Origin: Pseudolabrys sp. | GTDB lineage: Bacteria > Pseudomonadota > Alphaproteobacteria > Rhizobiales > Xanthobacteraceae | Assembly (NCBI GenBank): GCA_022841665.1 | Contig: JALHRB010000007.1 | Location: forward strand, 54,196 to 118,195 | Length of the DNA: 64,000 nucleotides | Direction: 5' to 3' | In this document: piece by piece, positions 40,349-43,079 of the stretch | Numbering within the stretch: the first letter of the stretch is position 1 | Layout: every line of letters begins with the position of its first letter | Program-made: the position numbers and the translations under genes | The notes under the pieces: model-generated | Database searches by the model: none | What the model saw: the letters and a program-made list of their open reading frames with translations, nothing else | What the model was told of the DNA's origin: nothing

Positions 40349-40628
40349 AAACGGCGCCTTGCGGCGCCGTTTCGCGTTTCATGGGGACCGCCCGCCTCAG
40401 TGCGCGGTGAGCCCTGAGCCCTCCTCGTCGCCATCGGCCGCCGGCGTGGCGAGCTTGGCATTCTCCTCGTCCCAGACGATCGGCTCCGGCTTGCGCACCA
40501 GCGCGTGCGCCAGAACCTCGTCCATGCGCGTGACCGGGATGATCTCCAGGCCCTTCTTGATCGTGTCGGAGATTTCCACCAGGTCCTTGGCGTTCTCCTC
40601 CGGAATCAGGACGGTCTTCATGCCGCCG
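40349..40628. repeat. Left 280-bp direct repeat (lon terminator plus lon 3' end)
   Basis: 278/280 identical to 42800-43079. The only differences are at 40592 (g vs a) and 40604 (a vs g). Confidence 0.95.
40397..40628 (-). pseudogene. lon: Orphan 3' fragment of lon (last ~76 codons)
   Basis: Encodes ..[43 protein letters not shown], identical to the C-terminus of the intact Lon at 42848-45274. Upstream homology ends abruptly at 40628. Confidence 0.9.
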
Positions 40629-40693
40629 ACTTACATGGCCGATCCGTTGCACAACAATTGGCACAGTTTCGCTGCATAAGCCCCTCTGCGCTA

Positions 40694-42349
40694 TCAAATA
40701 TCTGCAATGTGCGCCTCTTTCACTCTTACGTACGTCTTAGAATGCCCCTCGCCCCGCTCTTCAAGTTCAATGAGATCAATTCTGCCTATGAATTCGTGAA
40801 ATGATGCTGCTGCAAACCGACTGTAATCAAATTCTGGAAACTCAATCTTAAGCAAATGGCCTAGCTGACCTAAGAAGATCCAACCACCTTCTCGCCCATA
40901 CTTTCTTACAATTTCTGTGATTTTTGTGTGAGCCGATCGGAGTTGGTCATCATAATTCTGTTGTGAATTTTGACCATTGGAACGCATTCGCACGAATACC
41001 GCCTTTGCAGGACCAGTGCCGCGCTCGTCAAACTCTAAGCCGTCAAGTTTTCTTAGGACAGATATCAAATTTCGTCCGCCATACCTTTGCGGAGTAAACC
41101 CCGAAATTTGCTTGCGAAGTTCAGTGCCAAATTCAGCAAGCGATATCCAAGCGCCCTCATAGTCTGATAGTTGAACAATCAAATCTTCTGCAATTTTTGC
41201 CAAGTCCCTGCTTATCTCCGCCGTATCCCTGATAGGCTCAATTTCTTCAGGCAGCGGAATTGTGTAATTCTGAATTGGAAGGCTTTCGAGTGAACGCGCA
41301 CTTAGTTTGAACTTTCCAAGGAGCTTATCGACAGCGAGCAAAGCGCCTACACCATTCGGCTCGCCACGATAATCCCTAAATAAGGGAAAAATCTCTAAGC
41401 CCTTCAGCTCTCGTATACTAAGTAATGCATTAGTCACACGAAACAAAAAATCCCGCTCTTCGTATCTGCCTACCACATAGATGCGATCAATGCCTCTCCT
41501 CAGCTTTTCTTGTACTCTTTTTACGTAGGCTTCAATACCGGGTCTAAAGTCAGGTGGTTTGGAAACCAACAAAAACCCGTATGAGCTACAAGAGCCTTGA
41601 TAGCTCCAATCATGCTCAGGCTTATTTTTGCGAAGAAATGGTTGAAATCCCAACATATGAGATAAAATTGTTTCGATAGTAGTCGGCAGCTCAGCGCGCT
41701 CCGAATGGAACCGCGAGTTATTCGCGACATAGTCTATTTCCCGAAGGAAGGGCCCCATCAGCAATCCATACTCATTCAACCTTACACAATCTGCGAAGTG
41801 ATCCAAAACCATTTGCTTATCACCGGCAACCTGCTGAATGAAAACAGTGTCAAATTCGCCAAGCAAGTATGGATGGCTTTCCTCTAAGCCGGCTCGTGCA
41901 ATCGCAAGGGCTGCGCCGGAAACTAGTTCGTCCGGGAGAATGTCACGTGTGTTAGGAAACAGCGCACCACGAAAATAAATCCATAGTGTTTGCATTAGAT
42001 TATGATCGGTATTAACGCCGGGTCGGACTCTGAGAACTATTTTCCCATCTCTAAGTTGAGGCGCTTGAGAGTTTCGCACCCAGCGAACCTTTGCTCGCTT
42101 AACCCAGCCGGACGGAAGATACTGCTGTAAACGAAACGCCGTTTGATTCAGTACTTCCTCAATTTGAGTGGCGACCGCCTTTCGCCGAAAAAAAGGAATT
42201 GTAACGCTGTCCGCCAACAGTCGCCACAACTTTGATTGCGCTGACATGAGGCGAGGAAATGTAATCAATACCAGCCCAAATCCCTTGCCCGCGAGGTCTA
42301 CGCCGCCAAATATTGCAAGAACCAAAAGCAAAATTTCGAGCGTGTTCAT
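40694..42349 (-). CDS. 551-aa protein: N-terminal TM anchor, uncharacterised ~350-aa core, two C-terminal OST-HTH/LOTUS-like repeats
   Basis: Uninterrupted ORF in AT-rich DNA, where random long ORFs are unlikely. TM segment LEILLLVLAIFGGVDLAGKGFGLVLITF. Repeats GAWISLAEFGTELRKQISGFTPQRYGGRNLISVLRKL..VFVRM and GGWIFLGQLGHLLKIEFPEFDYSRFAAASFHEFIGRI..TYVRV. Confidence 0.8.
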   Translation of the reverse strand: MNTLEILLLVLAIFGGVDLAGKGFGLVLITFPRLMSAQSKLWRLLADSVTIPFFRRKAVATQIEEVLNQTAFRLQQYLPSGWVKRAKVRWVRNSQAPQLRDGKIVLRVRPGVNTDHNLMQTLWIYFRGALFPNTRDILPDELVSGAALAIARAGLEESHPYLLGEFDTVFIQQVAGDKQMVLDHFADCVRLNEYGLLMGPFLREIDYVANNSRFHSERAELPTTIETILSHMLGFQPFLRKNKPEHDWSYQGSCSSYGFLLVSKPPDFRPGIEAYVKRVQEKLRRGIDRIYVVGRYEERDFLFRVTNALLSIRELKGLEIFPLFRDYRGEPNGVGALLAVDKLLGKFKLSARSLESLPIQNYTIPLPEEIEPIRDTAEISRDLAKIAEDLIVQLSDYEGAWISLAEFGTELRKQISGFTPQRYGGRNLISVLRKLDGLEFDERGTGPAKAVFVRMRSNGQNSQQNYDDQLRSAHTKITEIVRKYGREGGWIFLGQLGHLLKIEFPEFDYSRFAAASFHEFIGRIDLIELEERGEGHSKTYVRVKEAHIADI

Positions 42350-42684
42350 GGTGAGCTCATTGCGCCGAGGCAGATTTTGGCGTCACAAAGGAAGGCGTAG
42401 CGCCCTTCTTTAATGACAAAACCAGCAAGGTTTTCGAACGTGAGCACGGTGTTGCAATGTGCGCAGCGTAGCTCGCCGTTGACGAGGGCATTAAACTGAC
42501 CAATCTCTTTAAGTAAATTTGTCAGGTCGTGGTCGGTAATTAGCGATACGTCCGCTTTCTGGAATCTCCCTAAAAAGGAGAGCCACCTCGTCCATACCGC
42601 AGATAAATGCACCCTAAGATTGAGAATCGTACTGCGCATATATCCCTCATCGCGGTCCATTTGATGGACCGGCGAATATTTCAT
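42346..42684 (-). CDS. Small (97-112 aa) Cys4 zinc-ribbon-like protein
   Basis: CAHC..(22 aa)..CDAKIC near the C-terminus. Its stop forms an ATGA overlap with the downstream 551-aa gene. The alternative ATG at 42639 has a GAGGGA Shine-Dalgarno and may be the real start. Confidence 0.65.
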   Translation of the reverse strand: MKYSPVHQMDRDEGYMRSTILNLRVHLSAVWTRWLSFLGRFQKADVSLITDHDLTNLLKEIGQFNALVNGELRCAHCNTVLTFENLAGFVIKEGRYAFLCDAKICLGAMSSP

Positions 42685-42723
42685 TTGACCGACTGATCTT
42701 GACCTAGACCCCCAGGTTAACTG

Positions 42724-42751
42724 ATATTAGAACATCCCTGAGTTGAATCAA
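42724..42751 (-). promoter_or_regulatory. Sigma-70-like promoter for the island operon
   Basis: On the minus strand: TTGATT, a 16-nt spacer, then TAATAT. About 40 nt upstream of the first ATG at 42684. Confidence 0.5.
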
Positions 42752-42790
42752 GTTTACGAACCGACTTTATAGATAGCGAGGTTCTTCGAA

Positions 42791-42823
42791 ACCAAAGAAA
42801 AACGGCGCCTTGCGGCGCCGTTT
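42791..42823 (-). terminator. lon rho-independent terminator (a second copy sits at 40349-40372)
   Basis: Stem aaacggcgcc-ttgc-ggcgccgttt with a T-run on the minus strand. Confidence 0.8.
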
Positions 42824-43079
42824 CGCGTTTCATGGGGACCGCCCGCCTCAGTGCGCGGTGAGCCCTGAGCCCTCCTCGTCGCCATCGGCCGCCGGCGTGG
42901 CGAGCTTGGCATTCTCCTCGTCCCAGACGATCGGCTCCGGCTTGCGCACCAGCGCGTGCGCCAGAACCTCGTCCATGCGCGTGACCGGGATGATCTCCAG
43001 GCCCTTCTTGATCGTGTCGGAGATTTCCACCAGGTCCTTGGCATTCTCCTCCGGGATCAGGACGGTCTTCATGCCGCCG
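42800..43079. repeat. Right 280-bp direct repeat (functional lon 3' end plus terminator)
   Basis: 278/280 identical to 40349-40628. Continuous with the intact lon ORF. Confidence 0.95.

Follow-up and report, generated by a model that had tools for sequence, protein, structure and literature searches.

The 3' end of the lon gene is duplicated in Pseudolabrys sp., and an island of two genes with low GC content lies between the two copies. The island is part of a stretch of 64,000 nucleotides (GCA_022841665.1, contig JALHRB010000007.1, 54196–118195); this whole stretch is called the window below, and positions are counted from its first nucleotide. The best reading of the insert is a horizontally acquired two-gene cassette without a recombinase of its own. 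The two closest homologues of the cassette (ca. 70% amino acid (aa) identity) also lie at the 3' end of lon, in two other Bradyrhizobium-related lineages. From these comparisons, displacement of the lon end appears to be a recurring state of one cassette clade, and its recurrence in three lineages is new. The structure is tentatively interpreted, with confidence a little short of even, as a C-terminal displacement (insertion-duplication) island whose installation, spread and loss would all be due to homologous recombination of the host at lon sequence.

The duplicated lon end and its insert

The direct repeat comprises positions 40349–40628 and 42800–43079, which match at 278 of 280 positions, as the original prediction had claimed. 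It is the sole long repeat that self-BLAST detected in the window, and it is real and far above chance. A weaker match (8 of 11) prolongs the repeat by 10–11 nt into the terminator U-tract, to 40339 and 42790. Each copy, on the minus strand, consists of the last 77 codons of lon, the 3' untranslated region and a terminator hairpin. The right copy is attached to an intact lon of 808 aa (42848–45274, minus strand), identified in the list of open reading frames (ORFs), whose final 77 codons lie within the repeat. These are followed by 48 nt of untranslated sequence and the intrinsic terminator of lon (42799–42824, minus strand), GAAACGGCGCCGCAAGGCGCCGTTTT and then a U-tract, detected in a terminator scan; its hairpin is identical to the one in the relative L052. 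The Lon protein of the window has 84–88% aa identity to Lon of related genomes.

The left copy (minus strand) is a displaced, or orphan, lon 3' end. It contains an intact ORF of 74 aa (40397–40621), which matches only the last 42 positions of the Pfam family Lon_C. The orphan frame is open and starts at an internal Met (MKTVLIP), with lon homology starting 7 nt upstream of that ATG. Both earlier assignments, of the right copy to an intact lon and of the left copy to an orphan fragment, were thus confirmed. A second copy of the terminator hairpin (40348–40373, minus strand; terminator scan) ends the transcription unit formed by ORF-B, ORF-A and the orphan, and it has this position because the orphan follows ORF-A on the same strand. 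Lon itself remains intact, since the cassette is preceded by one copy of the last 77 lon codons and the terminator. The original prediction had also called 280 bp unusually long for such a repeat. This was not supported, as the repeat is a duplicated gene end and not the core of an attachment (att) site.

The only mismatches between the copies are at 40592 and 40604. Each is synonymous in the lon frame, and both are within 37 nt of the inner boundary of the repeat. Such clustering near the inner edge would be the signature of a crossover or of gene conversion.

The insert is ca. 2.16–2.17 kb long and has an overall GC content of 0.45. It forms the sole low-GC trough in the window, with values of 0.43–0.50 compared to 0.62–0.72 in its flanks. 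GC content at third codon positions (GC3) is 0.43 in ORF-A, 0.57 in ORF-B, and 0.91 in lon and clpX, so the AT-rich character that had been noted is evident in both the GC profile and GC3. ORF-B and ORF-A occupy 1,991 of the 2,161 bp that separate the repeat copies (40629–42789) and form a compact operon on the minus strand, in the same direction as lon.

The lon terminator is separated from ORF-B by an AT-rich spacer (42685–42798, minus strand), presumed to be the promoter region of the cassette; no sigma-70 consensus was found in it on the same strand. ORF-B (42346–42684, minus strand, 112 aa) has a zinc-ribbon-like CxxC...C...C motif, conserved in the alignment of its homologues, and has no family match in Pfam. 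Its stop codon overlaps the start of ORF-A (ATGA). ORF-A (40694–42349, minus strand, 551 aa) encodes an N-terminal membrane helix, an uncharacterised domain of ca. 340 aa and two OST-HTH/LOTUS domains, as judged from Pfam, AlphaFold, Foldseek and a survey of the family. OST-HTH (PF12872) was matched in two stretches with E = 6e-20 and 71.3 bits, against a gathering cutoff of 23.8, and 24 of the 24 family members scanned exceeded the gathering score. The AlphaFold model of ORF-A (pLDDT 83) had no match in the PDB at E ≤ 0.001 in a Foldseek search. The only local matches were non-significant: an Alba fold (best E = 0.036), falling in a subdomain of the ca. 340-aa domain, and one OST-HTH structure. 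In a library of viral structures, the first ca. 350 residues matched one uncharacterised siphovirus protein (E = 6.5e-14).

A cassette tail of 65 nt (40629–40693, minus strand) lies between the stop codon of ORF-A and the orphan boundary. It was considered as a decayed remnant of lon codons −100 to −78, and rejected: local alignment was no better than with shuffled sequences (p = 0.23).

Mobility genes were sought with the hidden Markov model libraries of Pfam, NCBIfam, PADLOC and PHROGs. No integrase, transposase or recombinase was found in the island with any of the four, and only OST-HTH was matched. Foldseek found no recombinase, transposase or nuclease fold in the ORF-A model, the island had no terminal inverted repeats, and an Rfam scan found no RNA element inside it, with matches limited to the two flanking tRNAs. 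The absence of a recombinase, part of the original prediction, therefore stands. Three known types of element were also considered and rejected. For an insertion sequence or transposon, neither a transposase nor terminal inverted repeats nor a short target-site duplication was found, and the repeat is 280 bp of the target gene. A diversity-generating retroelement was dismissed because no reverse transcriptase was found with Pfam and because the repeat differences are G/A and A/G, one in each direction. For a group II intron or other RNA element, Rfam gave no supporting feature.

Empty and occupied lon sites in relatives

The closest relative at the DNA level is L052, with 98.1% aa identity in ClpX and a lon nucleotide identity mostly of 0.93–0.97. 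Its site is empty: lon is followed by the identical terminator hairpin, then ca. 57 nt on by tRNA-Val, and then by hup and tRNA-Asp. A second close relative, L109, has an equally empty arrangement, with lon and its terminator directly followed by tRNA-Val. None of the nearest reference genomes (L052, L109, L007–L013) has the cassette, and reference genomes of the L104 and L106 lineages, discussed below, also have empty lon sites. Related lon loci were surveyed by scanning the genome collection with the Lon C-terminus; of the 80 related loci among the matches listed, none had a second copy of the lon 3' end. The island thus appears in these alignments as an insertion relative to every relative examined, in agreement with the original prediction, and the pattern named there as evidence to the contrary, a duplicated lon end without an insert, was seen in none of the listed loci.

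Two further comparisons with L052 were negative. A 44-nt pattern of the lon 3' end common to the window and L052 had no match among metagenome contigs, and when lon identity to L052 was plotted along the gene in a sliding window, no sharp recombination breakpoint appeared where the repeat ends. L052 is a nanopore-derived metagenome-assembled genome in which lon (8700–11215) is seemingly frameshifted, with broken tblastn matches and a 3' end out of frame; its Lon protein identity is underestimated because of this.

The island is not a one-off, since L104/L105 and L106 share its geometry. L104 and L105 come from independent samples and are 100% identical across 2.4 kb. Their ORF-A (P0001) has 71% aa identity to that of the window, and the order is: last codons of lon, terminator, a 190-nt spacer, ORF-B, ORF-A, a 100-codon orphan, a different terminator, and tRNA-Val. 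In L104, a gap of 5 nt separates the ORF-A stop from the 100-codon Lon C-terminal ORF. Both this orphan and its terminator are nearest to those of Bradyrhizobium L011 and L013 (84–86%). The lon-attached tail of L104 is 91% identical (62 of 68) to the orphan, with the repeat stopping at the stop codon; the lon-attached terminator is unrelated to that of the orphan and has a weak likeness to the terminator of Tardiphaga L012. The lon-attached end of L104 would fit incoming DNA that carried its own lon end (donor-type). In L106, a Lon tail ORF of 43 codons and then a terminator come after ORF-A (P0002, 70% aa identity), and the orphan region aligns with the L008–L010 lineage. By these alignments, the orphans of L104 and L106 appear to be host-type. 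The three lon-site cassettes differ by ca. 30% at the protein level and have ca. 67% DNA identity. The spacer upstream of ORF-B was compared between the window and L104 as a candidate element end or att site, and rejected: only the terminator U-tract is alike, and it also resembles the native sequence of L007.

These loci make it scarcely credible that the window is a chimeric assembly in which foreign DNA was joined into the lon locus. The abrupt change of composition could suggest such a join, but the same architecture is found in independent assemblies of other samples and lineages, L104 (ENA), L105 (JGI) and L106 (JGI). In addition, the repeat copies differ at two positions, and ORFs and terminators are intact at both junctions.

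The outer joints of the cassettes differ. The orphans have 100 (L104), 77 (window) and 43 codons (L106), and the cassette tails past the conserved end of ORF-A (...KTYVR) are about 24, 100 and 16 nt long, respectively. The three joints do have one feature in common – the A of an in-frame Met codon lies 5, 7 and 6 nt downstream of the point where lon homology starts, with M-TGEIT in L104, M-KTVLIP in the window, and M-DEVL in L106. Within the last ca. 114 codons, 1.7–2.6% of junction positions per host would qualify, for a joint chance of ca. 1e-5 if the events were independent. All three orphans are open frames, with an in-frame deletion of one codon in L104, and the orphan ATG is 5 nt (L104) and 13 nt (L106) after the ORF-A stop. 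These Met-anchored orphan starts are new and not fully explained. We infer from them that the translatability of the orphan may be under selection. Translation could keep the transcript running to the terminator hairpin, or the orphan may encode a functional Lon C-terminal peptide.

The second cause would make the orphan a third gene of the cassette, with a translated peptide of 43–100 aa acting, for example, as a mimic or decoy of Lon. The position and chance estimate of the boundaries in all three hosts, the intact frames with their in-frame deletion, and the short distances from ORF-A in L104 and L106, which would permit translational coupling, are in accord with this. However, all three have in common only the acidic tail of Lon, which is poorly conserved; no such gene accompanies cassettes elsewhere, no Shine-Dalgarno sequence is visible, and translation is perhaps selected only against premature termination, in reaching the protective hairpin. 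A third gene is considered very improbable.

Variation of the joints also bears on whether the island was placed by a site-specific integrase. It could derive, as satellite or as remnant, from an element with site-specific integration into the 3' end of lon, with the integrase elsewhere, lost or never linked, and with the orphan trimmed later. In its geometry the island matches e14 with icd and icdC exactly, one target gene is used in three lineages, and the lon-attached copy of L104, with its own terminator and 91% identity to the orphan, resembles a replacement end borne by an element. The unameliorated GC3 of ca. 0.45 in all three cassettes suggests an external pool of lower GC content, which would need a targeting device. 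Against this, the two genes fill nearly all of the space between the repeats, leaving no integrase or integrase pseudogene, and nearby prophages use tRNA-Asp. No lon orphan, and no element inserted in the 3' end of lon, is present in the 80 listed related loci or in 80 viral or prophage loci with lon; every Lon C-terminal match in viral contigs belonged to a full-length lon at the edge of a prophage. Each of the three hosts has a different inner boundary (100, 77 and 43 codons), and the repeat stretch common to them, the last 43 codons only, is the least conserved part of Lon, although it may contain a common crossover core. It would be unparsimonious to assume three independent decays that each left exactly the same two genes. 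A fixed att system is disfavoured because no recombinase is encoded and because no such elements were found in the 80 related and 80 viral or prophage loci, and an origin by integrase is considered unlikely. Joints as variable as these would be expected of illegitimate or deletion joints, not of one fixed att site. Host recombination with an illegitimate or deletion joint is preferred because junctions vary between hosts, the orphans appear host-type, and the lon-attached copy of L104 appears donor-like.

Alternatively, a single ancient insertion in a Bradyrhizobium-related ancestor may have been inherited vertically, lost in most descendants by recombination between the repeats, kept lon-like in its orphan by gene conversion, and altered by lineage-specific deletions. 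This needs no mobility gene, the two mismatches near the repeat edge in the window fit gene conversion, and flanking repeats are found only in the lon clade of the cassette family. Cassette identities of 71, 71 and 68% aa are congruent with those of the hosts in ClpX (93.9, 93.9 and 91.8%) and Lon (87.6, 84.4 and 82.7%), but this congruence rests on three taxa and has almost no power. The cassettes have kept a GC3 of 0.43–0.46 after synonymous saturation in hosts with a GC3 of 0.9, while other family members partly track their hosts (GC 0.38–0.58). The closest references (L052, L109, L007–L013) have no cassette, so many independent losses would be needed, and the terminators of the two copies in L104 are unrelated. 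A single ancient insertion is rather improbable.

The cassette family and its surroundings

ORF-A has 32 detectable homologues among 5.8 billion proteins, nearly all of them metagenomic, and no relatives were found in the IMG/VR viral contigs. Searches for the exact sequences of ORF-A and Lon of the window had no match. A homologue of ORF-B is upstream of ORF-A in every locus with sufficient upstream sequence, except the most distant one, L103. The GC content of the cassette is always below that of its flanks, with a family range of 0.38–0.58 that partly tracks host GC.

The original prediction had raised the question of whether the insert always adjoins lon. It does not; most homologues are at unrelated loci. 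The cassette is near a BrnTA toxin-antitoxin pair in L001, amid transposase genes in L087, beside a methyltransferase in L089, downstream of panC in L100, and downstream of tRNA-Ser in L102. In L088 (929–11826), an island of ca. 11 kb with the cassette separates the normally contiguous rplK and rplA, and two genes downstream of the cassette have a 186-bp repeat in common (91%). In L095 (1022–5848), the cassette lies beside tRNA-Gly and is flanked by a directly repeated vapBC-like toxin-antitoxin module (PIN/RHH), with 77% identity between the two copies over 758 bp. Flanking repeats are absent at most non-lon loci of the family (L001, L006, L087, L089, L093, L098). A duplicative insertion mechanism of the cassette's own was ruled out because copies at unrelated loci are mostly without flanking repeats.

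A different gene end is duplicated in L003 (9706–11146), and also in L096 and L097. The last ca. 270 bp of thiC are repeated around a gene for an OGG-like glycosylase, with 91% identity and a frameshifted orphan. A distant ORF-B/ORF-A cassette abuts the thiC orphan of L003 in the opposite orientation. The thiC locus is a second example of gene-end displacement.

The N-terminal domain of ca. 340 aa belongs to a family that has, in a set of 1.84 billion proteins, 260 cluster representatives. Stand-alone proteins of ca. 350 aa are numerous among these, and others are fused to S1, NusA-like KH, or OST-HTH domains. The cargo thereby defines an uncharacterised protein family: a ca. 340-aa N-terminal domain, swappable RNA-binding C-termini, and an obligate zinc-ribbon-like partner. 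Typical bacterial OST-HTH proteins have an NYN nuclease domain. ORF-A, with its two OST-HTH domains, is like the bacterial OST-HTH/LOTUS proteins (PMC2848206); unlike the typical ones, it has no recognisable enzymatic domain and is predicted to be membrane-anchored. At its other loci, the cassette has toxin-antitoxin pairs, a methyltransferase, Mrr and transposases among its neighbours. Domain architecture and neighbourhoods suggest that the cargo probably serves in conflict or defence, as a module that senses RNA: a membrane-anchored protein has swappable RNA-binding C-termini, its small zinc-ribbon-like partner is obligate, and the surrounding islands abound in genes for toxin-antitoxin pairs, restriction and transposases. 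Effectors with OST-HTH and S1 domains have been noted in conflict systems (PMC8195603). Among known anti-phage defence systems (PADLOC-DB 2.0), no component matched ORF-A or ORF-B.

Several features close to the island in the window also differ from those of relatives. Hairpin repeats resembling repetitive extragenic palindromic (REP) sequences lie between the orphan terminator and tRNA-Val (40210–40338) and are absent from L052. These GC-rich repeats include CCGCCGTAGCTTTAGCGAAGGCGG and CCCGTCGTAGCCGAAGGCGAAGACGGG, and a related motif is found at 38614–38638. The adjacent tRNA-Val(tac) block (40042–40209, plus strand; gene at 40102–40177) is inverted relative to L052, L007, L012 and L109, in all of which tRNA-Val is co-directional with lon. 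The inversion breakpoints coincide with the two convergent terminators of lon and hup (hup at 39656–39964), which share a ...GCCGTTT.CG.GTTT tail. In L104 and L105, the contigs are identical across the cassette, the orphan and tRNA-Val, and diverge exactly at the 3' end of tRNA-Val (2760 in L104, 2396 in L105), which indicates a separate variable site there. L109 has a prophage (2216–7220; tyrosine integrase, portal and capsid genes) at tRNA-Asp, next to hup and ca. 1 kb from its empty lon site. Three other segments of the window, each of ca. 2 kb and of normal GC content, are absent from the syntenic L052 contig (36644–38624, 49618–51722 and 55352–57455). They contain a 605-aa multi-pass membrane ORF without a Pfam match, a multicopper oxidase, and an MHYT-PAS-MCP chemoreceptor.

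Possible routes of insertion and loss

If the island is a C-terminal displacement island as proposed, host RecA-type recombination on lon homology would make the structure, copy it between related hosts, and remove it, with no site-specific recombinase encoded by the element. A circle with a lon fragment might integrate through a single crossover, or a linear repeat-cassette-repeat molecule might enter by two crossovers inside the 3' end of the recipient's lon. The outer joint between cassette tail and orphan would be made by illegitimate joining or trimmed by deletion, and was apparently selected to fall immediately before an in-frame ATG. If the two repeats recombined with each other, the cassette would be deleted and no scar left, and such scarless loss is the proposed cause of its patchy distribution. 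Three options had been offered originally: an island mobilised in trans, a decayed remnant, and cargo exchanged by homologous recombination with lon as the homology arm. The evidence from L104/L105 and L106 favours the third; the first two survive in the unlikely integrase-dependent origin described above.

The arrangement has likenesses to several known systems. As in Campbell-type insertion-duplication, a direct repeat flanks the insert, a 3' fragment serving as homology leaves the gene intact, and the event is reversible. Insertion-duplication by circular DNA is used in mutagenesis and is known also from natural transformation. To our knowledge, it has been described as a laboratory or rare natural event, and not as a state in which one cassette is found repeatedly in nature at one housekeeping gene. 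Cis-mobilisable elements (CIMEs) are integrase-less elements at the att sites of integrative and conjugative elements, for example at the 3' end of fda in Streptococcus thermophilus. The lon island is likewise small, integrase-less, repeat-flanked, and at the 3' end of a housekeeping gene. CIMEs have the short att sites of a known cognate element, however, and no cognate element or att core was found at lon among the 80 related loci listed and the 80 viral or prophage loci.

The likeness to e14 at icd that had been pointed out originally is real in its geometry: a replacement 3' end keeps lon intact and an orphan is on the far side, in L104 as in the window, just as icd is kept intact with the orphan icdC on the far side of e14 (PMC13626634). 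As with e14 and phage 21 at icd, the duplicated gene end forms direct repeats, and recombination between such repeats removes the element (PMC13626634). Unlike e14, which is ca. 15 kb long and has its own integrase and excisionase, the lon island is 2.17 kb long, with two genes and no recombinase. The lon repeat boundary also differs between hosts, and the window copies are nearly identical, unlike in e14.

In Rhs and type VI secretion system (T6SS) effector genes, displacement of 3' ends has been attributed to homology-facilitated illegitimate recombination, in which entering DNA is held by its homology to a conserved gene and moves the former 3' end downstream (PMC5361080). The lon loci share with Rhs, contact-dependent inhibition (CDI) and T6SS displacement an intact gene, a displaced homologous 3' fragment downstream, and the absence of a dedicated recombinase (PMC5361080). 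The non-homologous joint is variable, as in homology-facilitated illegitimate recombination, with three different joints in the three hosts. Unlike in the Rhs, CDI and T6SS loci, where a polymorphic toxin tip and an immunity gene are displaced and the function of the gene changes, the housekeeping protease is unchanged at lon and the cargo is a separate downstream operon.

Several points weigh against displacement by host recombination. The mechanism is read from anatomy alone; no excised circle, donor or recombination intermediate was observed. The repeat copies of the window are 99.3% identical, so a donor-type lon end is not demonstrable there. Homologous recombination alone leaves the Met-anchored boundaries (5–7 nt, three of three) unexplained. 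The three lon-site cassettes keep a GC3 of 0.43–0.46 despite ca. 30% protein divergence in hosts with a GC3 of ca. 0.9. Such a low GC3 seems hard to square with long residence or with spread by recombination only among GC-rich relatives, and it hints at an outside reservoir and a targeting device. The defence role of the cargo rests on architecture and neighbourhoods only, with no PADLOC match.

A bolder reading, which we regard as decidedly doubtful, is that the clade is a mobile element that does without a recombinase and exploits host recombination, using a fragment of lon, which is conserved and essential, as a built-in homology arm to land at lon in different genera. It would keep lon intact and borrow its terminator, with the displaced fragment kept translatable and possibly a third gene. 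Its two cargo genes would then form a new defence module at the membrane that senses RNA and in which OST-HTH, S1 or KH domains are interchangeable.

If displacement by host recombination is the true account, host recombination and the duplicated end of a housekeeping gene would be enough to insert accessory and probably defence-type genes there, to exchange them and to lose them cleanly. Such islands would escape programs that look for integrases, tRNA sites or short att repeats. With its recurrence in three lineages and its non-random Met placement, the lon site offers a concrete experimental system. Testable questions include whether displaced gene ends are scars or expressed parts of islands, and whether RecA-dependent insertion-duplication is a natural route of gene transfer. 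The ORF-A/ORF-B cargo is a candidate for defence screening.

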